Source: a virus (Duplodnaviria; Caudoviricetes). From it: a stretch of 64,000 nt of DNA. The stretch lies in the IMG/VR virus record IMGVR_UViG_3300044981_000214; one strand, given 5' to 3'. Position numbers and translations under genes: made by a program. Below are positions 3,826 to 63,908 of this stretch, piece after piece (within the stretch, counting starts at the first letter, position 1; each line of letters opens with the position of its first letter). A model generated the notes under the pieces. The model was given only the letters and a program-made list of their open reading frames with translations, searched no databases and was not told the DNA's origin.

Positions 3826-3954
3826 ATGGCAATCAAACCGATGGTCCTAGGTCTAGTAGGCCGTCGGACAAATAAACGCATTTGTGTAAAGGTCGGTCGT
3901 CGTGTCTACTGCGGTAGACGTGTCAAACGTCAAGCAAGGCTTAAACTTAGGTAG
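3826..3954 (+). CDS. 42-aa basic Cys-paired peptide (not in ORF track)
   Basis: MAIKPMVLGLVGRRTNKRICVKVGRRVYCGRRVKRQARLKLR*. Confidence 0.7.
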   Translation: MAIKPMVLGLVGRRTNKRICVKVGRRVYCGRRVKRQARLKLR

Positions 3955-3963
3955 GATCCTGAT

Positions 3964-4251
3964 ATGCCCATTAAGCCAGTAACTGTCATCGCGAAAGGTC
4001 CCCTAAAGAACGTTCAGCGTGCAGCAGCACGTTATGACGTTCCCGTTTCTGACTGTCGAGCTATTGGCGGTGACGTACAGTGTCACACGTTATGCAGCGC
4101 TGAAGCTAATATGGCTGAATGGTTCTCAGCACGTGGGCGTGTCAAGCAGGGAAGAGGATTCCCGCCTGGCACGCTTCTCTATTATTCCGGCAAGTGCGGG
4201 ACACGCGAGCTAGGGACAAGACGTTCGCGTAAACGTACGCGGAGGCGCTAA
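3964..4251 (+). CDS. Hypothetical protein with LG + Arg-rich tail
   Basis: Ends RELG-TRRSRKRTRRR; TAGGAT 6 nt before the ATG. Confidence 0.7.
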   Translation: MPIKPVTVIAKGPLKNVQRAAARYDVPVSDCRAIGGDVQCHTLCSAEANMAEWFSARGRVKQGRGFPPGTLLYYSGKCGTRELGTRRSRKRTRRR

Positions 4252-4256
4252 AAGCC

Positions 4257-4817
4257 GTGCGACGGCATCGTTCAACAGGCTTCGGTGACACGCCTGAAGA
4301 GGCGTGGATGATTGCGCGTGATGCTATTGAGGAGGAAAAGCCAGGCTACCAGGAGCGCGTATCTCAGATAGTTAAGCAGGGTAAAGATTTGCTTAACGCT
4401 GAAGACATTAAGACAGGTAGAAAATCTGTCCCCCGTGACTTGTTGCCATACGACCTCGAACGTAATCCGCGGATCAAGACTACGTACTCGATAATAACAC
4501 CTGAATCAGCAGAAATTGGTGACACAGCAGAACGTGGTTGGATCGACGAGGAAGGCGAATCGATGTTACCCGCTGATGAAGACGAGACAGTCATCGATCG
4601 GGCAGTAGCATTTCTGCTGAGTGAAGGTATTACTGAGTCGTCATCATCGGGCAGTTACGGCAGATGGCCAGGTCCTGGAATTTGGTATTCAACACAATTT
4701 GAAATGGACTATTCTACAGGCAATGAGGAAGAGCGTTCATTTCATCTATATGAGTTTACTGATGACGAGGAGAAAGCTATATACTTTGCCTTGAAGTCAA
4801 AGATTAGATCCCTATGA
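4257..4817 (+). CDS. Acidic protein with basic FGD leader; N-domain shared with 55994..56629
   Basis: MRRHRSTGFGD...ARDAIEEEKPGY. Confidence 0.75.
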   Translation: MRRHRSTGFGDTPEEAWMIARDAIEEEKPGYQERVSQIVKQGKDLLNAEDIKTGRKSVPRDLLPYDLERNPRIKTTYSIITPESAEIGDTAERGWIDEEGESMLPADEDETVIDRAVAFLLSEGITESSSSGSYGRWPGPGIWYSTQFEMDYSTGNEEERSFHLYEFTDDEEKAIYFALKSKIRSL

Positions 4818-5146
4818 GACGCAAACCTTGTCCAGCTGGCAAGACGCCAGACATCAACCGTGGCGGCTGTCGTCTAATCGGTAAGATCGGCAATCGCCAA
4901 CTGGGCAGCACACGACCGCTAGTTACGAATCCTACTGAGAACGCTGCACGGATCGTTGAACGTGCATTTGAGAACTGCCAGGATCGTCGCGGACGCGCTT
5001 TTTGGCAAAATAATCGCTGGTTCGTTGAAGATGATAAGCGCCGCGTTTATGCTGCTCTAGATGCGTCTCCAGGCTGTGCAGGGTCGAATATTGACTTCAC
5101 CCAAGTGAAGAGTTTTGGGCAGGTCGATAGGAAGAAAAAACGCTGA
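4814..5146 (+). CDS. Hypothetical protein with LG/FG motifs
   Basis: NRQLG-ST and KSFG-QVDRKKKR; overlaps the upstream stop (ATGA). Confidence 0.65.
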   Translation: MRRKPCPAGKTPDINRGGCRLIGKIGNRQLGSTRPLVTNPTENAARIVERAFENCQDRRGRAFWQNNRWFVEDDKRRVYAALDASPGCAGSNIDFTQVKSFGQVDRKKKR

Positions 5147-5184
5147 ATTGTGTGATAAGCTAGGTTAAAGAAAGGCTTAATCAA

Positions 5185-7941: not shown

Positions 7942-8298
7942 GTGCTAACCGTTACGCGTGAAGGCGCTACGCCCAACATGCTAAAGTACTATATCGTTGC
8001 CGACGAGGACGGCGGAGAAATAGCTATTGCGCGAGAACAGCTATTGAAAGATTGCACCTTCGGGCCTTTGAGAAAATACATTGATTCAGCCGTCAGTCTC
8101 CCAAGCGCTGATGCTGCCTGGCAGTATCTATTCTGCAATACTTCTATACGCGCGCTGCTGACACCAAGAACGTTAGCCAGGACCTGCGTTGATGCCGCAG
8201 TATTGATACCTAGCGGTAAGTTGCAGATCTGTTTTAGAGCAGAACCGAACGCTAAAGCTGTTTTCGCACTTGAATTTCGTCACACTCTATCTGCATAA
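7942..8298 (+). CDS. Hypothetical protein
   Basis: ORF in operon order. Confidence 0.5.
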   Translation: MLTVTREGATPNMLKYYIVADEDGGEIAIAREQLLKDCTFGPLRKYIDSAVSLPSADAAWQYLFCNTSIRALLTPRTLARTCVDAAVLIPSGKLQICFRAEPNAKAVFALEFRHTLSA

Positions 8299-8306: not shown

Positions 8307-8648
8307 GTGGGATTCAAGATATTGATCTTTGCGTTTATTGGCGCTTCACTAGTATCAGTGCCTAAGGCATCTGCCGTACAAGACCCTGATGAACCTACAG
8401 CACCAATGCCTGACGCTAGGCCTGAACCACATGAACCGCCCCCGCTACCTGACCCGATTCCGGTTCCTCCAGAATCCCCGACTGATCCTGTAGAACTTCC
8501 TCCAGACCAAAATCCATTGCCCGATCCAGAAGACCCGCCTGACAGACCTGGGCCCGATGATTTTAGATATAGCCAAGACCTTCGCAGTTTAGACACGGCT
8601 GCCAGCCTACGCCGAAGCCTACAAAGATCATCCCGACGGGATGATTAA
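8307..8648 (+). CDS. Secreted Pro/Asp/Glu-rich low-complexity protein
   Basis: Signal peptide (..KASA) followed by PDP/PEP-rich tract. Confidence 0.55.
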   Translation: MGFKILIFAFIGASLVSVPKASAVQDPDEPTAPMPDARPEPHEPPPLPDPIPVPPESPTDPVELPPDQNPLPDPEDPPDRPGPDDFRYSQDLRSLDTAASLRRSLQRSSRRDD

Positions 8649-9066
8649 TCTCGTCCGGTTGCTGCCTGCAAGCCGGACATTGTCGAAGGGCGATCACGCG
8701 ATCGATACACTGCTTAGCCGTCTCATTTTCTTTGGGATCGAGGCTGAGACAAATATAGTCGGTGTCAGTTACTATTGCGTTCGGATCGCCGGTATTTAGC
8801 CGCTCAGCAGCAGCACGAAAGGCATCTGCCTGAAGAGGCACGAAGATCTTGTCTGAATATATGTGATATCGATATCGTGTAAGGTCACCGTAACTGATTC
8901 GATAACTACGATTTCCTGCGACGTGGAATCCCCAATCCGGGCCTTCTTCAATAACTAAGCGTTCCGCCTTAAAATCAGCTTCGATGTTATTAAGCACCAA
9001 TAAAGCCTGCAGGGCTTCCAATTTCTCACGGGGAAGTATCATGAATCGTACCTGTGCCCGCGGCAT
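8563..9066 (-). CDS. Hypothetical protein, ALQA module + C-terminal DnaJ-like Zn finger
   Basis: EKLEALQALL; CPAC...CLNCEGLG. Confidence 0.6.
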   Translation of the reverse strand: MPRAQVRFMILPREKLEALQALLVLNNIEADFKAERLVIEEGPDWGFHVAGNRSYRISYGDLTRYRYHIYSDKIFVPLQADAFRAAAERLNTGDPNAIVTDTDYICLSLDPKENETAKQCIDRVIALRQCPACRQQPDEINHPVGMIFVGFGVGWQPCLNCEGLGYI

Positions 9067-13566: not shown

Positions 13567-14178
13567 ATGCAACCGCTTGGGGATGTACAACCGACCCAAC
13601 AAATTTTCGAGTTTTCTTGTGGCAGTGCGGCATTAAAGGCCGTTCTAAAGCATTGGGGTATGGATGTTGACGAACCGACACTAATTGATCTTATCGGTGT
13701 AGACCCAAAGACAGGTAGCACTGCGTACCAAGTCGAGCGTGCCGCAAAGAAGCTCGGGTATCAAGCCATAACTTTTGAGTTCGACAACGTGGAGGAACTT
13801 AAACCTTTCGTCGACAATCACGTGCCCGTCATCATGGCTATCCAGAGCTTCAAACGGCCAGATCAAGGGCACTTCGTCGTCGGAACGAAAGTCCAAGACA
13901 ACACAATCGATATTATGGACCCAAACGTCAAAGGCAACTGGCGGACGATCTCGAAAGCTGAAGCTACTCGACGCTGGAAGTTTCGTGACAACGTGGGCAT
14001 TGTGGTAACGCCTAAGTCAGGTTTGGGGGAATTGGATTGGGTACGGTCAAGAAATCGGCAAATGTACGATTATGGTCGTGGGGTTGGAATTGCCGAAGAT
14101 GCCACCTGTAATCCACTTCTTTGGGCCGTCGGAGGGATAGCTGCTACGTTAGCTGCGGTGTGGCTGATTACGCGCTAG
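13567..14178 (+). CDS. C39-like cysteine peptidase with C-terminal membrane anchor
   Basis: QQIFEFSCGSAAL (Gln/Cys), GHFVV (His), MDPN (Asp); TM + R at the end; start set 7 nt after TGGTAAACT. Confidence 0.85.
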   Translation: MQPLGDVQPTQQIFEFSCGSAALKAVLKHWGMDVDEPTLIDLIGVDPKTGSTAYQVERAAKKLGYQAITFEFDNVEELKPFVDNHVPVIMAIQSFKRPDQGHFVVGTKVQDNTIDIMDPNVKGNWRTISKAEATRRWKFRDNVGIVVTPKSGLGELDWVRSRNRQMYDYGRGVGIAEDATCNPLLWAVGGIAATLAAVWLITR

Positions 14179-14444
14179 CACTTTTCTTTGAAAACGGCGT
14201 CTCCGCCACCCCACGATGTTCCTATTAGGCCAAACAACAGTGAAAATAGAAACGAGTTGTTAGGACAGCCCGACGGTGAAGCTGAGGGCGATACTTTATC
14301 GAACATAATATCTGCTAAAACGCCTAAAGCTAACCCGACGCTACTTCCAATTGCTACTCCTTTAATGTATTGGCCTTGCGTAATAGGGCACGCCGTTTTA
14401 GTTGTATCTCCTAATTGGTGCACATTTCGCCTATTTCGTCTCAT
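14175..14444 (-). CDS. Small two-TM protein with basic LGD leader
   Basis: MRRNRRNVHQLGD; two hydrophobic Gly-rich segments. Confidence 0.7.
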   Translation of the reverse strand: MRRNRRNVHQLGDTTKTACPITQGQYIKGVAIGSSVGLALGVLADIMFDKVSPSASPSGCPNNSFLFSLLFGLIGTSWGGGDAVFKEKC

Positions 14445-14461: not shown

Positions 14462-14620
14462 AAAAAAAAAAACACTAGCGCGAAGTAGTAAGACCTAATT
14501 ACGTGCCTATCCGGTTAACGCTCATTGAGCAACCCGGCTTCCCTCAACAGGAGGCTGATGACAGATCTTAGCTAGATCTACCAGCTGTCTTTTCGACAAC
14601 GCACTCAGCCCGAGATTAAG
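14462..14620 (-). ncRNA. Orphan TnpB omegaRNA with about 21-nt variable tail and T11 tract
   Basis: Scaffold near-identical to about 54230-54353; diverges after GTAAT(T/G)AGG; hairpins conserved. Confidence 0.6.
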
Positions 14621-14852
14621 TATGTTCTGTGCCGAGTTCACGTCTCGGTCGTGGCTAGCGCCACATTCAGAACATACCCATTCCCTTATTCCAAGACCTG
14701 CGATACCTTTCGGCCTCGACTCGGGGATAATTCCACAAGCCGAACAGGTTTGGGTCGTGAAACGCTCTGACACTTCTTCGAATATCCCTTGGCGCCTTCT
14801 GGCCTTGTAATCAAGGGCTTGTTTGGAAGCGTACCAGCCTGCATCATAGATT
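14494..14852 (-). pseudogene. tnpB: 3' remnant of TnpB-2-like gene
   Basis: IYDAGWY...CSAC..CSEC..HDRDVNSAQNI; nearly identical to about 53997-54353; the 5' part is absent. Confidence 0.9.
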
Positions 14853-15124
14853 GTTGGGTTCTCGCAGTACCGACAGACCTAACAAATGCTCTACAGGCAG
14901 TATTGAATATAGGCAATCATGACTTGGCGAAAGAGTTAGCGAATGATGCAGGCTGGTCTCTAACATTGGTTCATACCTTCCAATCCTGGGGACCGAATTA
15001 TTACCAGTTGAGCATCAGAAGTGAGACGCCCCCTTTATTTGAAAGACATATGTATTTAATCTACATAGACCGTGTATTAGAATACGTTCCCTGCCCCAAG
15101 GAACGTGTTCATACCTATGTGTAA
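14789..15124 (+). CDS. ALQA-module family protein, possibly 5'-truncated
   Basis: PTDLTNALQAVLNIGNHDLAKELANDAGW; no start codon between the tnpB remnant and the module. Confidence 0.55.
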   Translation: MAPSGLVIKGLFGSVPACIIDCWVLAVPTDLTNALQAVLNIGNHDLAKELANDAGWSLTLVHTFQSWGPNYYQLSIRSETPPLFERHMYLIYIDRVLEYVPCPKERVHTYV

Positions 15125-15389
15125 CGACGGCGAGACTAGCCACGATTTCCTTGAGGCTCTTCAGGCCTTACTAAGGGTAGGTACAGACGAGGCTAAAGGC
15201 ATCGCGAAACAGCTTTGTCTCGATGCAGGATGGATACTAACCACCTATTCCAGCTTTGATAACGAGCCCTTTTGGGAACTGCAAAATTTTACAAGATACC
15301 CTGGTAAAGTCTTATATAGATATGTCCTCACTGATCGGATATCCGATTTGAAGACTTGGTACCCTGACACACTTGATATACTGGAGTAA
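15105..15389 (+). CDS. ALQA-module family protein
   Basis: DFLEALQALLRVG...AKQLCLDAGW. Confidence 0.7.
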   Translation: MFIPMCNDGETSHDFLEALQALLRVGTDEAKGIAKQLCLDAGWILTTYSSFDNEPFWELQNFTRYPGKVLYRYVLTDRISDLKTWYPDTLDILE

Positions 15390-15395: not shown

Positions 15396-16667
15396 ATGGC
15401 TGCAATCCTGCCCAATCTCGAAGTTCCCGAAGACATATCGATTCTAGAACGCGAATATTCAAAATGCGCCTCGTCGATGCATGGCGCAACGCTAGGCGAA
15501 AACAGTCCTAGCTGTCCATCGCCCGACACAGTCATCGCAGAGGCGCACGCAGGCCTACTCAACATGGTATTCGTTCGTGAGGCTGTAGAACAGAGTCTCA
15601 TAGACGTAACGTTCATTGCTCAGGCCGGAAATCTGGCTGGTAAAGATACTAAGGGCGTATACCTAGTACTCGACAAGCCGATCGGTAGGGGGCCGGCGTG
15701 GAACCCTACTACAAATCCTGACGTCCAACAGTATTCGTTGCTGAGCTGGACTAGCAAGATGGCTTGCCCCTCGTTCAGCTTGCCTGCAGGTGATATAACC
15801 ATTGGCGGTAGCTGTCCCGGGGCTGCAGCAGGACAGAGTGTCGTCCCCGAAGGACGGTTAGTTGCAGCCCAAAGACTAGTTGCCAAGATTATCAAGAAAG
15901 AAGTCAATTTGGCGCAGTGTATCTGTGAGCACTGCTATAGTATGGGAGGTCAGTACAGCACTGGCCAGGTCCAGTACGCACAGATCCTACGCTATCTATG
16001 GGCACGGCAAGCCATCAATGTTGTAGCACCAGCACCAGATGGCTCGCCGTCTACTGCGTTTATCGAGACGATGGTTTATGCAATCGACAACGCCAATTTC
16101 TACCTCCAAGGCAGCAAAGGCGAAGACGCTGAACTAGTTCCCGAGCAATCCGGCAAGAAATTTTTTCGTATTCACGATTCAGGCGATTTCTTTGAGGAAG
16201 AATATCTTAGCCAATGGAAACAAATCGCTAGGCGTCTACCGCATATTCACTTCTGGGCACCTTCGAGGATTTGGGCCACAAGTTGGGGCATTGACGCAGT
16301 CAATAAGATCAACTCGCCGATTGATAACTTAGTTATTAGACCGTCGAGCTATGAAATCAACGAGCATCCACCACGAGATTTGGGTCCGGGATGGAGTGCT
16401 GGATCAACAGTGATTGCAGCTGACCAATTTCTTGGAATGACATCAGAGCTTGAGAAATATGTCTACGAGCACGCGCAACGAGTAGCGGTTCGCCCGAATG
16501 GACCTGATCCAAGAGCAGATTGGAACTGCCAAGCCTACTCCACCGAAGACGCTAAGCACACTTGCAGGAAAGCCGTAGCGCCTCCTGGGAAAGGTGGCGT
16601 TGCTGGCAAAGGCTGCCGAGCTTGTTGGCTAAGTACCGATTTAGTAGTTAACTATACGTTACATTAA
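15396..16667 (+). CDS. GP88-like (radical-SAM-like) phage protein
   Basis: TSKMACPSFSLPA, SCPG, ICEHCY, FFRIHDSGDFF, FWAPSR and CRACW motifs. Confidence 0.75.
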   Translation: MAAILPNLEVPEDISILEREYSKCASSMHGATLGENSPSCPSPDTVIAEAHAGLLNMVFVREAVEQSLIDVTFIAQAGNLAGKDTKGVYLVLDKPIGRGPAWNPTTNPDVQQYSLLSWTSKMACPSFSLPAGDITIGGSCPGAAAGQSVVPEGRLVAAQRLVAKIIKKEVNLAQCICEHCYSMGGQYSTGQVQYAQILRYLWARQAINVVAPAPDGSPSTAFIETMVYAIDNANFYLQGSKGEDAELVPEQSGKKFFRIHDSGDFFEEEYLSQWKQIARRLPHIHFWAPSRIWATSWGIDAVNKINSPIDNLVIRPSSYEINEHPPRDLGPGWSAGSTVIAADQFLGMTSELEKYVYEHAQRVAVRPNGPDPRADWNCQAYSTEDAKHTCRKAVAPPGKGGVAGKGCRACWLSTDLVVNYTLH

Positions 16668-19464: not shown

Positions 19465-20108
19465 CTACCTTTCTGGTTGCAGCGACTATGATCCAATAGC
19501 CATTGTGTGGCTTGACTGTCACGTGCCGGCCAACCAGCATCAGACCCGATACAACAGTATGTCGCACCGCAACCGCACGTCAGAGTCGTGCCTGCCCAAT
19601 TTTTTGACGTGTTGATCACTGGCTATCTAGCCTTCTTTGGCAATCCGGCGCCAATTGTCTTGATCCAACGATTCCAGTAAGCCCTTGCAACCCTACGTGC
19701 CTCTTCCTGTTGGGCTTTGGTAGTATTCCACGGTATCTGTACGCCAAGATTATCTATCACCCAGTCCTCGATTTCGAATGTCGAGAACTTGAACTTGGGT
19801 CCGCGGTATTTGGGATTGAGCATACAAATAAAGAAATCGGTAGATATCTTCTCTGCAAGGGCTCTAACTGTATCGGTTCTACTTAGCATTTGATCGACCT
19901 GCTTCAAACTCTTCAAGGTATCTAGAGAAAGTAACTTCCGGATCATCTTCCTCCAGTAATTCATTAACGATACTTAGGGCCATATTCCATTCGTCCGGCC
20001 TTTGCTGATTAACGGTACAGGCTAGTTTGATTGCCTTGTCTAGGTAATACCTAATGACCTTAGCTGCCGCAGTACGCTGAGCCTTAGTAGGCTTTCGTTT
20101 CTTTTTCT

Positions 20109-20948
20109 TCACCAGCACAGTCCTGACCCGTCTTCTGCCCAAGCTTCTAATGCTCCTAGTAGTTTGAGCATATCGCCCTTGTAGAAGCCTGCTGAATTGA
20201 GATTATTGACCTCAACAATTTTTAGGCCTTCAGACGTATCAGCAACGTCTAGAACATAAGCGTCATTGGGATGCCAGACCTTGTGACACTCGTGCGCAAA
20301 CTCCAGCACCCGAGGTTCGGTCAGCTCTGGCGCTTGGTACCGCTTGATCGTTCCGATCTTGTAGCCTGAAGACGTGACAGGTCCCCACGGTAGCATCCAC
20401 ACCCGAGTCTCGGACCAAATTTCTTTCTTGGTGCAGACCATCACGGGAGTATCCAGGTCAAGGAGGTTGATCCCAAGTGGATCGTTAACAGGGTCTGCGG
20501 TCTCGGGCATACGTTTGAGCCCTGCTACCCAATCTTGATAGTAGGGATAATCGCAGACCATCCCTGTGAAAGCCTTGGTGTCATGAACAGGTCGCAAGAA
20601 AAAGGGCTTCTCTTGTTCTGGAACAGCGCCCATTTTGTAGATCTTAGCATCGAAATTGAGCATTCGATCGCCCCAGTGCTGGCGCTGAATCTCAAAGTCT
20701 AAATTGGCTAAGAAAGCCCCTGGATGCCAGTTTCGTTCCTTGCGGGCAACGCGTGCCAGCGTATAGCTGCCGAGTACGATTGCATCTGCGCCGTTTTCGG
20801 GCAGAGCTGCGCCTTCAACTACTTCGAGCCCTCCTACAAATGGGATTACCTTAACCAACGTGTAGGTAAGATTCAAACGCTTGATTGCCGCAAGAAGACC
20901 TTCAAAGCCCTCTTCAGCGTAGATATTGGACTGAATCACCCAGTGCAT
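20109..20948 (-). CDS. ATP-grasp domain protein (DUF4343/R2K-like)
   Basis: FFLRPVHDTKAFTG; YVLDVA...KIVEVNNLNSAGFY. Confidence 0.8.
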   Translation of the reverse strand: MHWVIQSNIYAEEGFEGLLAAIKRLNLTYTLVKVIPFVGGLEVVEGAALPENGADAIVLGSYTLARVARKERNWHPGAFLANLDFEIQRQHWGDRMLNFDAKIYKMGAVPEQEKPFFLRPVHDTKAFTGMVCDYPYYQDWVAGLKRMPETADPVNDPLGINLLDLDTPVMVCTKKEIWSETRVWMLPWGPVTSSGYKIGTIKRYQAPELTEPRVLEFAHECHKVWHPNDAYVLDVADTSEGLKIVEVNNLNSAGFYKGDMLKLLGALEAWAEDGSGLCW

Positions 20949-22143: not shown

Positions 22144-22409
22144 TTAGTCTCCCTTTTCTTCCTTCTGATACCAAAGTCACCTGTTTCGTACTTATCAGGC
22201 TGTAGAAGATGATCATGTCCTACATGTGACGGCCAAGCATAAACCACGCATTGCGTATGCAGCGCCTCTGCAATAGCGGCAGCATTTGGATGATCACAGT
22301 TATCAATGAACATTTGAATCTTACGTACTTTTTCGAGTAGTTGATCCATTCGTAGCAGCGCACGAACGATATCAGCGTCCGTCTTGAAGTCTTTAATGAC
22401 ACTCACCGT

Positions 22410-26251: not shown

Positions 26252-26261
26252 TTGATAGATA

Positions 26262-45021: not shown

Positions 45022-45211
45022 CGGGGCTGATCATAATGATGTGTTCGCGGTTCCAACTATTACCGGCTTGTGCAATACGTAGGTACCATCCATCAGAATA
45101 TTTCCAAGCTTGAGCCTCCCAGCCGGCAAATACAGCCAAGTCTTTGGCTTGGCTTATCTCGCCAAGCTTTAACAAAGCTTGAATCGCGTGGATAAGCTCG
45201 ATCGGGAGCAA
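44978..45211 (-). CDS. ALQA-module family protein
   Basis: LPIELIHAIQALLKLGEISQAKDLAVFAGW. Confidence 0.72.
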   Translation of the reverse strand: MLPIELIHAIQALLKLGEISQAKDLAVFAGWEAQAWKYSDGWYLRIAQAGNSWNREHIIMISPDDFTDLLDPSSFHG

Positions 45212-48684: not shown

Positions 48685-48903
48685 TTAGAAACGCTTGATT
48701 TGCGAACTTTCACGCTGCCACCACTCCGCCTTCGTCGGCACTTCGCTAGGCTTGTGATCGCACGCACACCCGGGGCAACACGCCACCTGGGCGCCTGGCT
48801 TACGATCAGGAAGATTAGTCCAGAAAATTGTAGGTGTACGACATGAGAAACAACGCTCGTATGGCGGCTCAGGATCGTCTTGACGCTGGATGGGTACGCT
48901 CAT
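48685..48903 (-). CDS. Small Cys-rich protein, copy 1
   Basis: CFSC...CCPGCAC. Confidence 0.65.
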   Translation of the reverse strand: MSVPIQRQDDPEPPYERCFSCRTPTIFWTNLPDRKPGAQVACCPGCACDHKPSEVPTKAEWWQRESSQIKRF

Positions 48904-49321
48904 ATCAGCTCTACGTTTAACCTAGAAATTCTATTTCATCCAGCCAATTCATTGCCTTGAAGGCGCATCAGGCAAAAGCAGCTGTTGGTTGTTCGGGAAC
49001 AGCAACTCGGCGATCTTCCGAACATGGCGCGGATGAGGACGCCAAGGCTGACGCCGACGCTTGCATCGAAGCATTTAAGAAGACAGCGGATCCAAACACC
49101 ACTCCGCCTTCGTCGGCACTTCGCTAGGCTTGTGATCGCACGCACACCCGGGGCAACACGCCACCTGGGCGCCTGGCTTACGATCAGGAAGATTAGTCCA
49201 GAAAATTGTAGGTGTACGACATGAGAAACAACGCTCGTATGGCGGCTCAGGATCGTCTTGACGCTGGATGGGTACGCTCATATCAGCTCTACGTTTAACC
49301 TAGAAATTCTATTTCATCCAG
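48719..49321. repeat. 225-bp direct repeat (48719-48943, 49097-49321) around a 153-bp unique segment
   Basis: Identical by eye; includes the promoter motif and most of the gene. Confidence 0.92.
49075..49281 (-). CDS. Small Cys-rich protein, copy 2 (different C-terminus)
   Basis: First 61 aa identical to copy 1. Confidence 0.6.
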   Translation of the reverse strand: MSVPIQRQDDPEPPYERCFSCRTPTIFWTNLPDRKPGAQVACCPGCACDHKPSEVPTKAEWCLDPLSS

Positions 49322-49334
49322 GCCCCTATTTCAG

Positions 49335-49376
49335 AAAAAAAAAACGCGAAGTTAGCCCCTCCGGGCCAACTTCGCG
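49335..49376 (-). terminator. Rho-independent terminator
   Basis: CGCGAAGTTGGCCC..GGGCTAACTTCGCG + T10. Confidence 0.85.
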
Positions 49377-51237: not shown

Positions 51238-51510
51238 ATGAAGAAGCGTAATAGGACCTTAGGTTACGCCAAACGCCCAGCAGGCGCTAAGTGGACCGAC
51301 GCAAAGCGCGTTGAGTGGGCTGTGGACAATATCAAGGTTCTGCTAGATCCGTACAATTACGAACCTAGGGAAACACGGTGTGAGAATGCTCGCCGACAAG
51401 CCGCTAAGGCAGAAAGGCTATTAGCTAGAATTTCAGCCTCATCTTCCCACGCTTGGACACGCGAGATTCAAGCTATTCTTGATCGGGTTGCAAAGAAGTG
51501 CTCGCGGTGA
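51238..51510 (+). CDS. Hypothetical protein with basic LG leader
   Basis: MKKRNRTLG-YAKR; TGATATACT upstream. Confidence 0.65.
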   Translation: MKKRNRTLGYAKRPAGAKWTDAKRVEWAVDNIKVLLDPYNYEPRETRCENARRQAAKAERLLARISASSSHAWTREIQAILDRVAKKCSR

Positions 51511-53200: not shown

Positions 53201-54322
53201 ATGATCCTGACCTACAAATATCGGCTCAAAGGTAAGCGTACAGTTCGTCAACAGCGACAGTTTGCTTGGGCTGTAAACCAAGTGTGGAATTTCTGCGTTG
53301 CCGTGCAGCGCAAGATCCAGCGGAATTGGAAAGAAGGGTTGTTATCAAAATGGCCGTCCTTCTACGATTTGAAGGATCTGACCGCAGGATCCTCCAAAGA
53401 ATTGAGCCTTCATGCACAAACGATTCAGGATGTTTGTGCCCAATTTGTGAAGTCACGTGATCAACACAAGAGATGCCCAAAGTTTCGTAAGTCGAACGGA
53501 TCAAAACGTTCTCTTGGGTGGGTTCCATTTGAGGGACAGTCCCGGCAGATCACCTCTAGCTCGGTAACATATCTCGGCAACGAATATCGTTTCTTTGGTG
53601 CTAAGCGGCGTCCTCTTCCTGACACTGCTAAAGGCGGTTGTTTTGTAGAAGATGCGCGGGGACGGTGGTGGGTTTGCTTCCATGTCGAAGTTGATCAGTT
53701 GCAGCAAGCACCTGCTAAGGCAGTTGGGATCGATCTTGGACTGAAGACGCTAGCAACGTTATCAACAAATAAGAAGATCGAGGCGCCAAAGTTCTATCGA
53801 AAGCTTGAAAAGAAACTTGCGACGGCCCAACGGGCTAATAATCACGATCTAGCAAAAGCAGTAAATGCCAAAATCGCAAACCGTCGTCGTGATCACACGC
53901 ATAAATGGACGACGTGGTTAGCTAACAACTATAGCTTAATTTGTGTAGGCGATGTTTCAAGTTCTAAACTGGCCAAGACGTCGATGGCAAAGTCCATCAA
54001 CGATGCAGGCTGGTACGCTTCCAAGAAAGCCCTTGATTATAAAGCCAGAAGGCGCCAAGGGATATTCGAAGAAGTGTCAGAGCGTTTCACGACCCAAACC
54101 TGTTCGGCTTGTGGAATGACCCCCGAGTCGAGTCCGAAAGGTATCGCAGGGCTTGGAATAAGGGAATGGGTATGTTCTGAATGTGGCACAAGCCATGACC
54201 GAGACGTGAACTCGGCACAGAACATACTTAATCTCGGGCTGAGTGCGCTGTCGAAAAGCCAGCTGAGAATCCTAGCGGGTGCTCATCAGCCTCCTGTGGA
54301 GGAAAGCCGGGTTGCTCAATGA
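53201..54322 (+). CDS. tnpB: TnpB with rearranged RuvC-II, no tnpA nearby
   Basis: VGIDLG, VGDVS (canonical E absent), VSERFTT (alternative E), DRDVNSA, Zn finger. Confidence 0.95.
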   Translation: MILTYKYRLKGKRTVRQQRQFAWAVNQVWNFCVAVQRKIQRNWKEGLLSKWPSFYDLKDLTAGSSKELSLHAQTIQDVCAQFVKSRDQHKRCPKFRKSNGSKRSLGWVPFEGQSRQITSSSVTYLGNEYRFFGAKRRPLPDTAKGGCFVEDARGRWWVCFHVEVDQLQQAPAKAVGIDLGLKTLATLSTNKKIEAPKFYRKLEKKLATAQRANNHDLAKAVNAKIANRRRDHTHKWTTWLANNYSLICVGDVSSSKLAKTSMAKSINDAGWYASKKALDYKARRRQGIFEEVSERFTTQTCSACGMTPESSPKGIAGLGIREWVCSECGTSHDRDVNSAQNILNLGLSALSKSQLRILAGAHQPPVEESRVAQ

Positions 54323-54436: not shown

Positions 54437-54817
54437 TTAGCGATCCCAGGTGTGGCGGAATTCGATCGTCAAGTAAGACACGCCGGCACTTGTGGTGTCG
54501 GCAGCGACGATGTTGAAACCTGGAACACCGGCCTCGTTTTCACCTTCGACACCGAGAGTCGTTGTCGATAGTGTCGAGTTGGTCGTGACGCGAATCTTGG
54601 TGCTGTTCATCAGCGCCGCGGTTGCGTTCGCCGAACCCGACGAGGTCAAGCCCGCTAGAAGAGCTTGAAGCGGACCGCCGATACCGCCCTGGCCGTTGGC
54701 AAGCATGCTTGCCATTGTGACCGCGGCAGACGCCGAGGCGCCGCCTGAGAGGGTCAACGAGTATCTTTGCATGTATTTATCGGCATTTACGAGTGCTACT
54801 GCGAGTGCTGCTGACAT
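54437..54817 (-). CDS. Ala/Ser/Thr/Gly-rich protein, possibly structural
   Basis: AAGGAAAAAAACAA RBS like the one at 2370; structured leader. Confidence 0.6.
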   Translation of the reverse strand: MSAALAVALVNADKYMQRYSLTLSGGASASAAVTMASMLANGQGGIGGPLQALLAGLTSSGSANATAALMNSTKIRVTTNSTLSTTTLGVEGENEAGVPGFNIVAADTTSAGVSYLTIEFRHTWDR

Positions 54818-55797: not shown

Positions 55798-55851
55798 AGG
55801 TTGTTCGAAGTGTAGCTTGAATTGGCAAAGAAATAGCTAGATAATACCGTT

Positions 55852-55992
55852 ATGGCCAAGCGTAAACGAGGATTCTGGGATAAGAGACGAAAGTACGACC
55901 GTGTAATCTTTCGCAAATTCCCTGAAGGTGACGTGATCGCTCTGTTTCCCTCACAGTCTGAAGGGCTAGGCGGCGTAGAGGACGGTAATTGA
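55852..55992 (+). CDS. 46-aa protein with basic leader, possibly truncated (not in ORF track)
   Basis: MAKRKRGFWDKRRKYDRVIFRKFPEGDVIALFP...; GATAAT 6 nt before the ATG. Confidence 0.55.
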   Translation: MAKRKRGFWDKRRKYDRVIFRKFPEGDVIALFPSQSEGLGGVEDGN

Positions 55993-55993
55993 T

Positions 55994-56629
55994 ATGAAGC
56001 GTCACCGTGTAGACTTTAGTTTTGGCGACTCAGCCGATGACAGTTTTCTTGTTGCACGCGATGCAATTGAAGAAAAAAGACCAGGCTGGGAACAGCACGT
56101 AACCAAGATCATGGCTCAGGTTAAGCAAGAATATCCTGATGCAACGATTCCAGATGATCTAGGTCCATGGGACCCGGACTGGTGGGCCGCGTTTGCTGAA
56201 GGCGCTGCTCGCGCTATTTGGTCGGATACCTATATTACCGAGGTTGAACAGCTTACCGAAAGCGATGATCCAGGCGATCGAGAAGCCTATCGCGAGTTGT
56301 CCCCTGGACCCGGTGGAGCGTGGGAGTCTGTGATACCTGAAACTGTTCCTACGTCAGCAGAGAAACAGGGCAAGGAGTTCACGACGCAAGTGCGAAGAGC
56401 GTTGAAAAGAGAGGATCAAATAGAAGTAGCGTCTAAGCTTGACGCAGACACCGCAGGATGGTATGGGATGATGCAGGCACTAGGGCACGGTATGGGTTGG
56501 GGCGACTACGACATCAACGCTGATCCTGATATTCATGCTATGCCTGATACTGACGTCTACAACGACGCCTACCAGGCTGTGACTGAAGCGCTAGAAGAAG
56601 CCGGATACGAGAGAGCAGACGAAGAATAA
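55994..56629 (+). CDS. Acidic protein with basic FGD leader; N-domain shared with 4257..4817
   Basis: MKRHRVDFSFGD...ARDAIEEKRPGW. Confidence 0.75.
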   Translation: MKRHRVDFSFGDSADDSFLVARDAIEEKRPGWEQHVTKIMAQVKQEYPDATIPDDLGPWDPDWWAAFAEGAARAIWSDTYITEVEQLTESDDPGDREAYRELSPGPGGAWESVIPETVPTSAEKQGKEFTTQVRRALKREDQIEVASKLDADTAGWYGMMQALGHGMGWGDYDINADPDIHAMPDTDVYNDAYQAVTEALEEAGYERADEE

Positions 56630-58519: not shown

Positions 58520-61500
58520 ATGGATGATGCTGATCTCAAGAAGCTAGCGGAATATTTTATTTCCGCGGTGGGTAGCGACAAAGCGACGCTCGCTGAAGGA
58601 GTTTTGAGACTCTTAGCCGAACGCGACGCCTTGAAACTTCGCCAAACTGAATTGCTTGAATTGATCGCTAAGTTAACCCGTGAGACTCCTTACCCAGCAG
58701 AGCTGGACGAATGCCGGTCCGCTCGTGCAGCTTTAACATTACGGTCCGCCGAACGTAATTTGCGTGCTGAAATCGAAACCATGAAAGAGTTGGTCAAAGT
58801 TGCTTGTGAGTGGCGAAAACAGGCGTTTAGAACTCCCATCGGGTTGCCCTTGTTAGACGCAGTCGATAAATATTTAGGAGAACTAAAACCGCTAAGTGAA
58901 TACAAATGCCCTAGCTGCGGCAACGTAGAGATGCGCGACAAGGAAGGCCATTGCTTCAAATGCCCGGGTTACGGCAGTACGTGGATGTATCTCAAGGATG
59001 GTGACGATGCATGACGATGAATTGCAGCAACTAGTAGAACAAGCGCTAGCAGATGACCTATTAGCGACACCTGGGCCTTGGGATAGAGATTGGGATTGTA
59101 GCTGGTGGATATGGAATGACTGTAACGATTTCTTTTCACCTATTGAAGGTCGCGCGAACGCTACTTGGATAGCCAATGCTCGCACACGCGAGCCAGTACT
59201 GGCCAACGAGATCGGCAAGTTACTGGACGACAAGAAAAACTTACTCCGCCTGCTTGAACGCGCCTGTACACTGGTGCCCGATCGTTGGCTGTCGTTACAT
59301 GAACGCGAGGAATTCAACGAAATCTTGGCAGCTACAAGACTGACCAAATGATGATTGGAGTTGATTATTTCGACCTAGGCGTAGCGATGTATCGTCGTGG
59401 AGAACCGTGTCCCAATTACGATGGAATCGCTCTGACGGCTTGGATCATCGACGGATGGAAGCACGCCGCGAAGGTAGCGCAGGAGCCCGGGTACGAATGC
59501 GAGTGTGTGTCGTTCGATCATAAGACTATTCTTCGATGATGATGTCTGTGGCCCAGAAGACGTGCGTAGTCGAGATCCTGACTAGATTTAGCGACCATCA
59601 CCGTAAGCACGGCTATACGCTTCTGACTAGTCGATTGATGGCAGTAAAGTTTGTACCGCATACCTATGAAGGCGTGTTAGTAATGTACCCGGAGGGCTAT
59701 ACGCTAGATGTGTATGAAATTTCTATGTACGATGCCACCGCATTCAGTCTGGGTGCAGCCCGCATTGTCGCGTATGGCCGTGACGACGGACGTACTGGTG
59801 CCTTATTGCCAGCCGCCAAATTAGGGATTCATATAACTCTGCTCGTTAGTCCCAAAAGTGGACTGCCTTTGTCTGGCGATGAGGTCAGAGAAAGAATCAG
59901 TGGAAGGCTATTCACTTGTCCGTGTTCGATTTGCAAAGGGGAGAGCGCTTACATGCCGACAATTTTGTCTCCGATCAAGACTGTTAAGGAGCCTTAAAAG
60001 TGCCTGCCTACAATCAAATACAGCAGATTGTTATCGATGTGAGTCCTGAAGGTGCCATGTCTGACATCGTTTTTTCTTTCCATGGCAGTGATCCAAAGCA
60101 AGCACCGATGTGCATAGCCGAGTTTATTCCTGACTCGGCAACGCGGATCAAGTTAGAGAGTCTAGAAATCATGCTAGACAAATGGTTTGCAACCTATAAA
60201 GGCCTATTTAAGTGTGGCAAGCCAACAAAAACCGGGCCTTGTGTCTGTGCTGCAGGACACGATGAATGGGGCTGGTGCCCGTGTGAAAGTAACTCAGAAC
60301 TTGTCTGTTCTGCGTGCGGTCTTAGCTGTGATCATGTAGACCAAGCACACGTATTTTCGGTACAAGCAAAATGATTTGTCTTGAATGCAACGAAGTTTTC
60401 GCGCCTAGAATTTGCAAATGCGCGGGCGCAAGTCTAGGAAAGCGGTCCATTTGCAACGATTGTTGCGATTGTGGTGCAGCTACGATGACCTTTGAAGATC
60501 GTTTGGCAAAAATAGACAACCTGCACGAAAAATCCTTGGAAGCGTTTGTAAATCTGCAATTTTGCCCTCATTGTGATCAGCCGCGGGCAACCGCACCCGA
60601 GCACACGCCATGCCTCCCTATTAACTGTCCGACCTGTGATAATTTCTGTCACGGACTATTTGAAAACGGCGTGTGTACTAACCCTCCTGGACGCTCGGCA
60701 CCAGGAAAACGTAGGCTATTAAATCACATTGTACAGCTCGCTGTAGCGATCAAGAACTGTGACGGCAGCTATGAGAATCTCAAGCGCCTCACAACCGAGA
60801 TGAATAAGGTCACCGCTGAGTACATGAAATCTCCCGAGGACGAAAATGCTTAAGCTAACCCAAACTAGCCTCTACCCCAAAGGCAACTGCTGGCAGACAG
60901 CTGTAGCCTGTCTACTCGATATACCGGCTGAACAATTGCCATCTCAAGCCGATAGCTATTACTCGAAAATAGACAGGGATTCAGGCGAGACTACCTGGCA
61001 CATGAACTACAATAACAGGCTTCAAGCCTACCTGAAAAAGCACCACAAGCTTGCATATATCGAGCTATGGCAGCCCCAAGAGGCGTTATCTCAATTGCGT
61101 ATTGTTGGATATCACCTGATGTCTGGGACGACAGTACGTAGCGCTGCCTACGGTGGCCAACGGCATATCGTTGTTGGTTACGAAGGCAAGGTATTTTGGG
61201 ACCCTCACCCCAGCCAAGCGGGCTTGTTAGACGAAATCAGATGGGCTGTATTGTGCCCATTCCCACCTTCATGGGAACGGTATCAAAACGATGCGTGTGA
61301 ATGTCTGGCGTGCGTTGGCGAACCGAAACAATAAACATGAAAGATACCCCTACAACTGAGCTGGTTACTCGTGCTGTCGAGTATGCATTAGATGCTGCTT
61401 TAGGAGAAGTTCACCGTCAGGTCGGTGAAATGGGACATGTACTGAAAGAAGCTAGGGGCGCTGGTATGGACGCTGCACAGCTGTACATCGACCAAACAAG

Positions 61501-61955
61501 AATCAAGATCAGGGGCGAAGACTTCGCCTGCGAAGAGTGCGGCAAGCTTCAGGGATCACACTTGGATAATGGCTGGTATAGATGCAGCAATTGTGGTTAT
61601 CCTAGTAAGTAATCTCGAAATAATTCGTCTTGGTTAGGCGTAGACCTGATGGCAGGTATGCGCTAGAAGCTTTGTCGGCCCTAGTATCAACTAGGGAACA
61701 GAAATAAAACCCTGGATACACGTCATCCAGGCAGTTATGAACTTGACCGGCTACTATGAATCACGAGGTAAACGACGAACAAAGAAAATAGCCCGTGCTA
61801 AGCGACTACGTCTACGACGTGCAGCTAAACGTGAGCTAAATAAAAATGAGGGCGTCGCGGGTGACTCTTACGCTGACACCTACCCGAGTGGCGTCAGACC
61901 CTCAAAAACAAAACAGCCGCCGAGAGAGAGAGAGCTTGCTGCGTTTCCGCAGTAG
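58520..61955 (+). other. Run of small hypothetical genes, many Cys-rich; 58998 is Ead/Ea22-like
   Basis: Abutting ORFs; ATPGPW...NATWIANAR motif in 58998..59351. Confidence 0.6.
60846..61334 (+). CDS. Papain/C39-like cysteine peptidase fold
   Basis: Q....GNCWQTAVACLL, HIVV, WDPHP. Confidence 0.55.
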   Translation: MLKLTQTSLYPKGNCWQTAVACLLDIPAEQLPSQADSYYSKIDRDSGETTWHMNYNNRLQAYLKKHHKLAYIELWQPQEALSQLRIVGYHLMSGTTVRSAAYGGQRHIVVGYEGKVFWDPHPSQAGLLDEIRWAVLCPFPPSWERYQNDACECLACVGEPKQ

Positions 61956-61972
61956 AGGCCCGGCGGCTTTGT

Positions 61973-62371
61973 TTAGATATTGCCAGCGGGCGTCTTAAAG
62001 GTCGCACCATTGGCGTATTTCGCCCGGTAGTACTCAAGCGTTGCGTGAGCGTAAAACGCCTCGTCGACAACCGCGCCCGATCCCGAACCAAGCGCATGTG
62101 GCGTCACGCCAAACCACTGCTGAGAGAACTCAGCCAGTGCACAACCACCGATGCCTTCACCGGCATTGACAGCGTCTTGCTCGATTGCAGACCAGTTGGG
62201 CGCTCCACCGATAATCATGTTCTTGAACTGATTTAAAAGGTCAGCGATTGGTGCCAGGTTCTGGGTCGTGCAGTCAACCAGGGTCACCAGCGCAGCAGGC
62301 GGGTTGGTGCAGCTGACAGTAGAAGCTGGGACAGCGGCAAGAAGTATAACGGGGAGGACGAATGTCTTCAT
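61973..62371 (-). CDS. Putative lipoprotein
   Basis: MKTFVLPVILLAA...TVSC; TGCTACGCT 7 nt upstream. Confidence 0.6.
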   Translation of the reverse strand: MKTFVLPVILLAAVPASTVSCTNPPAALVTLVDCTTQNLAPIADLLNQFKNMIIGGAPNWSAIEQDAVNAGEGIGGCALAEFSQQWFGVTPHALGSGSGAVVDEAFYAHATLEYYRAKYANGATFKTPAGNI

Positions 62372-63378
62372 GGCTAAGAGCGTAGCACAATTTCTTCGTT
62401 GATGTATCAAGCATTAATCGTTATAACTCGGCGATGCATGAGACGGTTCCTCGATATGATCTTGCTCGCGTGGCCAACACAATTTTGTTAGAGCTTGTCC
62501 CTACTGAACCTCGGCTAATAACCGAAGTAGTTAACTCTCTTGGCACACGAGTGTCGGCCATATCAGAATTTCATCCAACCTTTGATTTTTCTTATTGGGG
62601 GCGTGGGACAGTCGTCGAGATAGTTAGGTTCCTACATGGTACAGGGTTAGTTAAGATAGAAGCCCATGAGGAAGATTTGGTCCTTTGGGATGATGTAAAG
62701 ATTTCTCTAACGGCTGAAGGTACTGATTATATCTATAGAGCCCGTAACGAACTAACTGAAGTTTTTAACAGCCTTGGGGCGATATGACTGCCGGTGAAGT
62801 TCCTCCATCGAGCCACGTCCGTTGTGGCTGTCCTGACTGTTGTGTCGCAGCCAACGCTGCGCTTGCACCGTCACCTGACTGGCCTATGGATGTGAGTAAC
62901 GGTCGACTACTGTGCACGCCCGAACGACCACGACCAGCTGATGCTAAGGGTCGTTGGGCGCATCGTGATATAGAAAATACTCACGCGGGTGACTACACCG
63001 ATGACTGGCGGTGCAAAGCTTGCGGCGTGGAATGGGCTGAGGAATTGGCAGAATGAACAACAAACAGGTTATCGAGGACTGGCGTTTGCTCGTCAATAGC
63101 TGGCGAAAGACTCACGACGAACAGACACAGATTAAAGTTGCCCGAATGCAATTTCTTGGCATAACGAAAATACGCGCCGAAACGCTTACAACCATTCCTC
63201 AACTACTTCCTCGTGCACGGGCACTGCACCGCTATTGGCCTATAGACTGGCCAAGAGAATGGTGGCTAGTAAGACTATTATGTAGGCTAGTAGATCGTGT
63301 ATTTGCGCCCTTTGATATATTGAAGGCCAAGTACGAGGTCAGGCTTGATAAGACAGACAACCACTGGAATGAATACAA

Positions 63379-63657
63379 ATGACAACAGATGAACTAAAGA
63401 CCAAATGCCGTGATTGGCCTAACGTTACTACCAACTCCTATACCGGCGACCCGCTCGTAGCACTTGGGCACGCGCGAGCTGCCTTTATGGGCATCGTGTC
63501 CAATTTTCTTGCGCCAGACTACGTCACCAACAAGCTCAAGCTCGCGCGCGAAATGAAAGTAGCACAGACGACTGTCGATCGCTGGGCACGTGGTATTTCT
63601 ATGCCAAATATCGGCGTCATGACGCTGATCGTAACGACAATTGAAAGGATGATTTAA
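63379..63657 (+). CDS. XRE-like HTH protein
   Basis: LAREMKVAQTTVDRWARGISMP. Confidence 0.7.
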   Translation: MTTDELKTKCRDWPNVTTNSYTGDPLVALGHARAAFMGIVSNFLAPDYVTNKLKLAREMKVAQTTVDRWARGISMPNIGVMTLIVTTIERMI

Positions 63658-63908
63658 CGCCGTCTAGGCCGTCTATTACCTAAGTCTGGAGTCACATTGA
63701 CTAGACACGTTTTCTCAAATCGTTGCCTCAGATTCTGCGTCCGATCGCCATTAGACGTGTGGCTTGAATCCAGATTTGAACGGCCTACTTCTTTGGCTAG
63801 CATAAGCCAGTTGTAGAAAGCGGTCCCACACGCACCCTTATCGAGGCTCGCATCTATTTTATTGGCTATGGTATGTATCTTTGCCCACGCTTTAGACGAT
63901 CTGGCCAT
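63654..63908 (-). CDS. Hypothetical protein with LG + Arg-rich tail
   Basis: Ends PDLG-NRRPRRR. Confidence 0.62.
   Translation of the reverse strand: MARSSKAWAKIHTIANKIDASLDKGACGTAFYNWLMLAKEVGRSNLDSSHTSNGDRTQNLRQRFEKTCLVNVTPDLGNRRPRRR

Follow-up and report, generated by a model that had tools for sequence, protein, structure and literature searches.

A 64-kb stretch of viral DNA (IMG/VR record IMGVR_UViG_3300044981_000214), referred to here as a whole as the window, encodes a set of proteins that carry a short basic peptide at one end, separated from the protein body by a Leu-Gly or Phe-Gly pair ([LF]G). Our analysis supports the existence of this recurrent and conserved boundary. Comparative evidence also supports a specific tie between the boundary and a stand-alone cysteine peptidase of family C39 encoded at 13567-14178 (+), because the same motif brackets the domain of the protease and because, in distant relatives, the motifs at the protease flanks and those in neighboring proteins change together. 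In the best-supported reading, which we hold to be about as likely as not, the hydrophobic-Gly pairs are recognition and cleavage sites of this protease, which is the virus's own. Cleavage, the enzyme responsible and the link to the virion are all things that we infer.

The protein encoded at 13567-14178 (+) has a length of 203 residues and ends with a C-terminal membrane helix. It matched the Pfam family PF03412 with 60 bits (cutoff 22) and could be aligned with the ComA peptidase domain (3k8u), catalytic motifs included. Its AF2 model had a pLDDT of 85.6, with the helix at residues 183-202, and the top Foldseek matches of this model were 3k8u, 6v9z, and 6mpz (ComA, PCAT1, and LahT150, respectively), with E-values from 2e-10 to 1e-8 and a root mean square deviation of about 2 Å. 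The catalytic residues Gln11/12 (13597-13602), Cys18 (13618-13620), His102 (13870-13872), and Asp118 (13918-13920), all on the plus strand, are invariant across 47 homologs. By fold and catalytic residues, the protein belongs to peptidase family C39 of clan CA. An initial annotation, made from the nucleotide sequence without database searches, had described a C39-like protease sharing the motif of the tagged proteins, and this was borne out: the fold is a true C39 fold and an [LF]G pair is present on both sides of the catalytic domain. All 49 close homologs are 150 to 270 residues long. No ATP-binding cassette (ABC) transporter was found among the Pfam matches of the window, and the protein is not fused to one. 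The hydrophobic helix (14113-14172, +) is followed by Thr-Arg only; in homologs, the helix is followed by residues of the YRRR type.

On the N-terminal side, Leu4-Gly5 (13576-13581, +), followed by Asp (QPLG/D), lies directly ahead of the V-x-P-x-Q-Q sequence with which the domain starts. A hydrophobic residue followed by Gly, Ala, or Ser was found directly before V-x-P-Y-Q-Q in 45 of 47 close homologs, whose N-terminal extensions range from 1 to about 80 residues; in P0018 and P0019 the extension ahead of the pair includes a DUF5661 domain of about 70 residues, and a pair of this kind is also found in relatives with other domains ahead of the peptidase. The peptide MQPLG-D, which had been listed as a basic leader, is actually this conserved N-terminal boundary of the C39 domain. 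On the other side, Leu153-Gly154 (PKSGLG/E; 14023-14028, +) is located in the linker that leads from the catalytic domain to the membrane helix. At least 90% of the 47 sequences in alignment A4 share Gly154, and in 38 of 42 homologs a basic stretch leading to a hydrophobic-Gly pair occurs 5-6 residues past the domain end, e.g., KRKQTQLG, RQQFGFG, or RSRSSLG. The other four have Leu or Phe followed by Ala, Ser, or Gly. The linker is otherwise unconserved and of low pLDDT. Self-releasing viral proteases are usually arranged in this way, with one short motif present on either side of the protease.

All 14 peptides quoted in the initial annotation were present in the six-frame translation of the window, and several of them had to be reinterpreted. 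The N-terminal tags follow the pattern M-(often basic, 4-12 residues)-[G/S]-[LF]-G-D. The leader (M)RRHRSTGFG (4257-4286, +), followed by Asp, belongs to a gene with a GGAGG sequence 9 nucleotides upstream of its GTG start codon. The leader MKRHRVDFSFG (55994-56026, +), again followed by Asp, is identical in the strain variant L002. These two proteins had been presented as unrelated examples; they are paralogs and were counted once, and the 55994 copy keeps the RHR..FGD residues of 4257 through synonymous codon changes. Searches for look-alikes of 4257 in the ESM Atlas gave weak leads only, to HK97 gp10-like or YomN clusters. The leader MRRNRRNVHQLG (14409-14444, -), followed by Asp, starts a small membrane protein of 89 residues, and MLQAVYTGSGFG (40345-40380, -), also followed by Asp, starts a 232-residue protein with a C-terminal membrane helix, two paralogs of which in the relative L001 start with MLSAVYAPQFG-G and MLQAVLTPGFG-R. 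A SleB-like membrane protein resembling cell wall hydrolases starts with MRWGHFGYFG (42602-42631, -), followed by Asp; the sequence GYFGDADP is kept in the ortholog P0002, and the distant orthologs P0003, P0004, L007, L012, and L013 have no such leader, their first residues falling close to the putative cut. Weaker candidates are MAKSAVKPRRRLRKQLG (22881-22931, -), followed by Gly, and MKKRNRTLG (51238-51264, +), followed by Tyr, which is similar to the starts MTKRRRSLG in L003 and MTKKKRKTLG in L015. Two other N-terminal occurrences do not represent tags: the FGD with which 40386-41264 (-) starts belongs to the catalytic GDS(L) block of an SGNH/GDSL lipase, and MAIKPMVLG-L (3826) starts a doubtful open reading frame (ORF) of about 45 codons, the beginning of which resembles the N-terminus encoded by the next gene (MPIKPVTVIAKGP...).

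The C-terminal motif occurs in two settings. In the first, a C-terminal hydrophobic helix is followed by a short basic patch, then by 4-6 small residues, [LF]-G, and poly-Arg; to this type belong the SleB-like protein (41261-42631), the GDSL lipase (40386-41264), and several proteins of L001, L007, and L015. In the second setting, [LF]-G and poly-Arg end small soluble proteins, i.e., those encoded at 3964, 4814, 22140, and 63654, and many in L015-L017. The 95-residue protein encoded at 3964 has LG followed by TRRSRKRTRRR (4210-4248, +), and its orthologs retain the pair as NLG-RRRKAGK in L017 and ALG-ARSRRKRRR in L016. A 110-residue protein ends with FG followed by QVDRKKKR (5114-5143, +), its L003 ortholog with PLS-RARSRRRRHR. 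FG followed by IRRKKRETK (22143-22175, -) ends an 88-residue protein that was absent from the initial list, and LG followed by NRRPRRR (63657-63683, -) ends one of 84 residues. In the lipase, FG followed by TQRRRKRIRRKG (40389-40430, -) is located about 8 residues past the hydrophobic helix, and the tail of the L001 ortholog reads ALG-KRRKPRSLIRRPK. Pfam and PHROGs searches with ten tagged proteins revealed no families.

The peptide ALG-RHKKPTRRRR of the SleB-like protein had been taken for a C-terminal tail as well. It is internal, comprising residues 351-363 of ORF 41261-42631 (-) (nucleotides 41581-41543); LG and the following RHKKPTRRRR (41543-41578, -) lie past the hydrophobic helix of the protein, and 93 more residues follow in frame, whereas the 57%-identical ortholog P0002 stops at that point. 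The gene is 93 codons longer than all of its orthologs, which end here, and the ORFan extension begins with MLSEW. The extended sequence is identical in the independent assembly L006. Since 93 extra residues follow in the window, a free C-terminus is not required at the tail site. No homolog of the extension was found in related loci or in a collection of 5.8 billion proteins, and the idea that it marks a polyprotein junction common to other viruses was not supported.

The frequency of the motif was analyzed in 143 greedy ORFs of the window. The expectation that [LF]G is enriched at protein ends was confirmed for N-terminal [LF]GD and for basic C-terminal tails, but not for [LF]G alone: within the first 12-20 residues this pair occurred 15 times compared to 11.9 expected (p = 0.18). 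[LF]GD was found 7 times in the first 15 residues compared to 0.54 expected, a count that none of 2000 resamplings reached. With the lipase dropped and the paralogs merged, 5 occurrences remained (Poisson p = 2.4e-4). In the window, 5 of 7 strong basic C-terminal tails were preceded by [LF]G at a distance of 0-3 residues, compared to a background of 3.5% (p = 1e-6). In a window of 0-2 residues, [LF]G preceded 13 of 34 basic tails when six genomes were pooled (p = 8e-12) and 9 of 27 in the five relatives alone (p = 6e-8). Tails in relatives include ALG-RRRRRRS, AFG-RRRSRRRR, GFG-KRRRR, LLG-RRRRR, ALG-ARSRRKRRR, PFG-RRQRR, MTLG-RRRRYGRA, and PAFG-RRGKLRPRGW. For N-terminal [LF]G[DE], the signal in the relatives alone was weaker than in the window (11 compared to 4.0 expected, p = 0.003). 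The G+C content of the relatives used for replication, as measured in L015-L017 only, ranged from 49% to at least 66%. In orthologs with 38-65% identity, the Gly is retained while the flanks drift, which holds true for the 3964 family, the 18976 family, the SleB-like protein, and the lipase.

These data bear on the trivial explanation that there is no functional motif at all and that the pattern reflects chance, paralogy, wrong start codons, or purine-rich ribosome-binding sites overlapping Arg/Lys codons. Several of the initial examples invite such an explanation, namely the two paralogs, the catalytic block of the lipase, the doubtful short ORF, and the internal peptide, and N-termini show no enrichment of [LF]G by itself. 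The codons of some tails overlap with the Shine-Dalgarno sequence of the gene that follows, which is GGAGG for the 4251 tail and AGGGAG for the 22140 tail. Moreover, the ESM Atlas entry for 4257-4817 (+) begins at residue 18, a Met, and lacks the tag together with the GTG start; public annotations may systematically miss such N-termini. Against this, the enrichment persists once the weak cases are removed and was replicated in five other genomes, orthologs conserve the Gly, and the tails of 7-12 Arg residues, mostly encoded by CGN codons, cannot all be ribosome-binding sites. We consider this explanation to be largely refuted by enrichment, replication, and ortholog conservation, and it retains hardly any probability. 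The codons that encode the motif vary from copy to copy, which places the signal in the protein rather than in a DNA motif, and an origin at the DNA level was rejected for the same reason. Two further candidates were discarded: sites of basophilic kinases (RRxS-L-G, Kemptide-like), which had been weighed because L003 encodes a protein kinase, since most leaders have no Ser or Thr at the right place; and type IV prepilin leaders, since no hydrophobic stretch follows the Gly.

A weightier alternative is that the tags are permanent and never cleaved. The Arg/Lys runs would then bind the genome, by charge neutralization and protamine-like condensation, or serve as an electrostatic packaging address for an acidic inner surface of the particle; the hydrophobic-Gly pair would be a cap or hinge ending the fold, and the motifs of the protease would be unrelated. 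Basic termini are indeed far more common than the motif: L015-L017 contain many proteins with MAKKK or MAKRKR starts or with poly-Arg ends (e.g., TS-RRRR tails) that lack a hydrophobic-Gly pair. Basic ends as such therefore need no motif, and the hydrophobic-Gly motif is a frequent, not a universal, companion of basic ends. The most common feature of the tails is any Gly 0-3 residues ahead of the basic run (21 of 34 tails), which fits a helix C-cap, and some proteins are almost wholly basic, e.g., the one encoded at 14719-14910 of L017. This alternative leaves several observations unexplained, i.e., the frequent Leu or Phe before the Gly, the Asp after N-terminal tags that is also found at the protease's own sites, the presence of the same motif around the protease domain in about 45 homologs, in part within an otherwise unconserved linker, and the joint switch of flank and neighbor motifs in a distant genome that is described below. 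We rate permanent tags as rather unlikely, yet as the main rival to cleavage.

A profile search for relatives of the protease in 1.8 billion representative sequences gave 4383 matches. Among the best matches were multidomain proteins in which the peptidase domain is internal or C-terminal and in which the fusion partners are InPase plus DUF5661, an SNF2 helicase, a C92 amidase, a GDSL lipase, or GNAT. In these distant relatives, the upstream flank reads EK-[TLI]-A, followed by [QE]-V-x-P-Y-Q-Q, and the downstream flank contains EKTA or, in another branch, HGRTA-K, in linkers rich in Pro and Ala. The contig of one relative, P0083, is a fragment of a crAss-like phage (L019), with the peptidase gene located downstream of a giant RNA-polymerase fusion gene. 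The flanks of this protease are MIKTA-K and KVKLA-K. The 660-residue protein encoded directly upstream of the peptidase (8018-10000 of L019) contains 10 copies of [KR][TLIV]A compared to 1.7 expected, a number reached in none of 1000 shuffles, and five of these ten are EK[TLIV]A (0.09 expected). A 303-residue neighbor (19852-20763) contains 4 copies of [KR][TLIV]A compared to 0.6 expected (p = 0.005). The other 11 L019 proteins showed no enrichment of [KR][TLIV]A (6 compared to 7.9 expected), and in the window EK[TLIV]A was not enriched either (1 compared to 1.4 expected). In this one case, the motif at the flanks and the motif in the neighbors thus change together, from [LF]-Gly to K-x-Ala, which is what a relationship between a protease and its sites predicts. 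As judged from these repeats, the 660-residue protein may be a cargo protein that is cut at many sites.

The three genes for the SleB-like protein (41261-42631), the GDSL lipase (40386-41264), and the 232-residue membrane protein (39682-40380) form a block at 39682-42631 (-). The same block adjoins the C39 gene in L003 and lies close to it in L001. In two relatives of high G+C content, SleB-like and GDSL lipase domains are parts of one protein with an N-terminal membrane anchor (493-2130 of L010 and 1698-3452 of L011); the window has two genes instead, each encoding a C-terminal helix. This organization is a hint for a different function, in membrane attachment, lysis, or entry. The tails would then be positive-inside topology determinants or juxtamembrane anchors, and the C39-fold enzyme would be an envelope hydrolase such as a peptidoglycan peptidase. 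In line with this, further genes of the window code for an M23 peptidase, a trypsin-like lipoprotein, and a weakly glucosaminidase-like protein, so that together with the C39 peptidase and the lipase five enzymes may act on the envelope, and the pseudomurein endoisopeptidase PeiR was found at rank 17 of the fold matches. Such a function would not account for the N-terminal tags, nor for the tagged proteins without a hydrophobic helix (3964, 4814, 22140, 63654, and many in L015-L017). In addition, the best sequence and fold matches of the enzyme are leader-peptide proteases, not wall hydrolases, and its relatives are fused to helicases, a pyrophosphatase, and GNAT, with no cell-wall connection. 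Overall, a lysis or entry function of the tails and the enzyme appears improbable.

If the hydrophobic-Gly pairs are indeed sites of the C39 protease, the enzyme would be synthesized with its C-terminal membrane helix and could trim itself at QPLG/D at the N-terminus and at PKSGLG/E in the linker, perhaps releasing the catalytic domain from its anchor. In trans, it could then remove short Arg/Lys-rich peptides from other viral proteins, with N-terminal substrates carrying leaders of the form M-(basic)-x-[LF]-G/D and C-terminal substrates carrying tails of the form [LF]-G/(x)-poly-R/K. An Asp or Glu at P1' is common to the N-terminal tags and the two sites of the protease itself. The basic peptides might bind or condense DNA, recruit proteins to the DNA or the particle, or hold membrane enzymes inactive.

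Several points weigh against cleavage by this enzyme. The case for it rests wholly on sequence comparison. The homologous protease sequences are related, so that counts such as 45 of 47 do not represent independent events, and the hydrophobic-Gly pair ahead of the domain could be a structural part of the fold of this subfamily. The co-variation of flank and neighbor motifs is based on a single distant genome, L019, and the many basic termini without the pair, as described above, count here as well. In the AF2 model the linker is not docked to the active site (pLDDT 47-62 for residues 151-190); in the full-length model both the linker and the N-terminus are of low confidence, and the model is thus uninformative on docking. 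In a complex prediction, the C39 protein (residues 1-155, A4) paired with the SleB-like protein (residues 1-40, A1) scored 0.02, with a mark of 0.32, which speaks neither for nor against binding. Furthermore, the tail sites of the SleB-like protein and the lipase lie after the helix, whereas the catalytic domain of the protease lies before its own helix. If all these proteins have the same membrane orientation, the enzyme and the tail sites would be on opposite sides of the membrane.

The relationship to known C39 enzymes is one of fold rather than of substrate. The C39 leader peptidases ComA (3k8u), PCAT1, and LahT150 (6mpz) have the same fold and the same Gln, Cys, His, and Asp residues as the 13567 enzyme. 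Classical C39 sites have Gly at position -2 and Gly, Ala, or Ser at position -1, with tolerant P' positions, and the leaders comprise at least 13 residues that form a helix with hydrophobic residues at -4, -7, and -12, which is needed by LahT150 and ComA (PMC6363468). The initial annotation had invoked a likeness to these Gly-terminated leaders. It does not hold: the candidate sites have Leu or Phe at -2, and the leaders have only 5-17 residues and lack the -4/-7/-12 helix, which adds to the points against cleavage. Only position -1 of the candidate sites fits, and the Gly, Ala, and Ser found at P1 in the homolog flanks are the allowed set (PMC6363468). In AMS/PCAT exporters the peptidase domain is located on the N-terminus of an ABC transporter, whereas the 13567 enzyme has a C-terminal membrane helix. 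Unlike classical C39 substrates, the candidate leaders are basic, and sites flank the enzyme itself and occur at C-termini as well. With a P2 residue other than Gly, no leader helix, and no transporter, the 13567 enzyme is not part of the double-glycine leader system as defined.

The closest parallel in terms of a processing system is adenovirus. Adenain, poxvirus I7, and pS273R of African swine fever virus are clan CE (Ulp1-like) proteases, and the consensus of adenain is (M/I/L)-X-G-G/X or (M/I/L)-X-G-X/G. The initial annotation had placed the C39 enzyme beside these maturation proteases; as their clan CE fold differs from the clan CA C39 fold, this is an analogy and not a homology. In adenovirus, Gly-containing sites bound the highly basic DNA-binding peptides of pVII and pX/mu, and a single viral cysteine protease processes the two ends of many virion proteins; the host there is eukaryotic. 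The prohead protease gp21 of phage T4, an assemblin-like serine enzyme, cleaves its substrates after Glu. The capsid-targeting sequence of T4 internal proteins resembles the present leaders in that unrelated proteins share a short N-terminal leader with a fixed motif at its end, which in T4 is a cleavage motif, but C-terminal tails of the kind described here do not occur in T4. The T4 arrangement corresponds to the model of the initial annotation, in which the tag routes cargo into the particle and is then clipped; for such routing, and for a virion location of the tagged proteins, our analysis gave no support. For adenain, cleavage and packaging, and for T4, head targeting, have been demonstrated by experiment, whereas the corresponding features of the present system would be predictions from sequence.

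Further similarities concern cargo proteins. The paper that defined polyvalent proteins, which occur in phages and plasmids, names four superfamilies of peptidases (zincin-like, assemblin-like, DD, and LonC) and makes no mention of C39 (Iyer et al., 2017; PMC5512222). The distant protease relatives share the typical partners of these proteins (InPase, SNF2 helicase, GNAT, lipase) as well as repeated short flanking motifs, and in the crAss-like L019 the C39 gene is a neighbor of the giant gene for a virion-type RNA polymerase. In contrast to polyvalent proteins, the window protease is a separate small membrane-anchored protein, and its candidate substrates are encoded by separate genes. Encapsulin cargo-loading peptides and engineered poly-Arg tags are likewise short terminal peptides on unrelated cargo, which would fit permanent tags; the encapsulin peptides differ in that they are not poly-basic and have no protease link. 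Sortase and exosortase signals combine an N-terminal signal peptide with the order motif, transmembrane helix, and basic cluster. A signal of this type was rejected: the order in the window is helix, basic patch, hydrophobic-Gly, and poly-Arg, several tagged proteins have no helix, and no signal peptides were found on the SleB-like protein and the lipase.

The window has a G+C content of 0.48-0.51 and contains about 143 mostly small ORFs, which make up 94% of the sequence and the majority of which have no assigned family. Recognizable genes include those for a Dam-type methylase, two TnpB proteins, two tyrosine recombinases, a nucleotidyltransferase, a FAD-binding enzyme, an R2K ATP-grasp protein, GP88, and one tRNA-Met. 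Capsid, portal, or terminase genes were not identified among the family matches within the 64 kb. DNA and protein searches against INPHARED phages gave no matches, nor did a search of IMG/VR with two window proteins, and a search of GTDB genomes for window relatives gave one 2.6-kb contig and nothing else; the virus clade is essentially missing from reference collections. The relatives of the window are known only as metagenome contigs from soil, peat, and wetland samples (L001, 232 kb; L007, 221 kb; L016, 157 kb; L015, 151 kb; L017, 56 kb; L003, 25 kb) and have the C39 gene, GP88, a recombinase gene, and a nucleoside-deoxyribosyltransferase-like gene in common with it. The window thus belongs to an uncultured clade of large viruses, the hosts of which are probably bacteria, since peptidoglycan hydrolases are encoded.

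No other protein of the clade is as conserved as GP88 (15396-16667, +; PF17338), which shows 54-65% identity and has the invariant motifs C-x-x-C-Y, RIHDSGDFF, and C-R-A-C-W. Its assignment as a capsid protein was rejected, as the conserved Cys-x-x-Cys and RIHDSGDFF-type motifs look enzymatic. In L015-L017, its gene is located inside a run of genes for small poly-Arg-tailed proteins. A β-rich family of about 120 residues, ending with ...EFRH(T/S)..., is encoded at 7942-8298 (+) and 54437-54817 (-). The 118-residue member at 7942-8298 was modeled as a possible clue to a capsid (pLDDT 90.8), and the model had no match in the PDB at E ≤ 0.001. Intact tnpB genes (IS605 OrfB/Cas12f-like) are located at 2546-3769 (-) and 53201-54322 (+), and a 3' remnant at 14522-14773 (-) shows 63% identity to the L003 TnpB. 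The strain variant L002 is nearly identical to the window. It has a third TnpB element in place of the window genes at 58520-59539 and two extra genes (1624-2279) preceding its 55994 ortholog, at a position corresponding to about 55850-55990 of the window; both of the encoded proteins start with M-x-KRKRGF, and one has a poly-Arg tail at its end. At 43228-45211 (-), six adjoining small genes open with a similar helical segment (...LLNAIQALL..., ...LIHAIQALLKLG..., ...LLQAVQALLRTG...) and continue with unrelated tails; the same helical module also starts 15105-15389 and 8563-9066.

The sequence GAAATAG occurs 30 times in the window compared to 7.6 expected. About seven copies are part of a longer shared element, TGAAATAG-N13-15-AAACGTATA, which ends about 10 nucleotides before an ATG (26240-26300, 26520-26580, 27040-27100, 27580-27640, 28440-28500, 48890-48950, and 49270-49340); the copies at 48931 and 49309 share about 45 identical bases. 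The extended element looks like the promoter of one class of genes with very short leaders. The absence of tags from the products of genes with a GAAATAG promoter, as initially proposed, applies to the approximately seven genes that have the extended element; with tags occurring at a rate of about 9%, this absence is uninformative.

In the literature searched, we found no description of this motif or of a C39 enzyme as a phage processing protease. The kind of system, with a viral protease, flanking sites, and terminal tags, is known; here, it would involve a new enzyme family and specificity in an undescribed clade. In the widest form, which we put forward tentatively and with more doubt than confidence, this clade of large soil, peat, and wetland viruses (contigs of about 56-232 kb) would have repurposed a 'bacteriocin-type' C39 peptidase as a general processing enzyme with hydrophobic-Gly/X specificity, which excises itself at its flanks and clips poly-Arg/Lys peptides off both ends of dozens of unrelated proteins, as a counterpart of the adenovirus protease with pVII and mu, and in crAss-like phages, injected cargo proteins would be cut by members of the same subfamily that are specific for K-x-Ala. 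If the sites are cut, the sequences of a whole lineage of large environmental viruses spell out a code for proteolytic maturation, so that mature protein ends and free protamine-like peptides become predictable. The C39 family, known for leader removal from bacteriocins and quorum peptides, would gain a role as a self-releasing phage processing protease, extending to cargo proteins beside the virion RNA polymerase of crAss-like phages, and a small protease that recognizes a short, portable motif would become available. Uncut tags would still be a conserved terminal address common to unrelated proteins.

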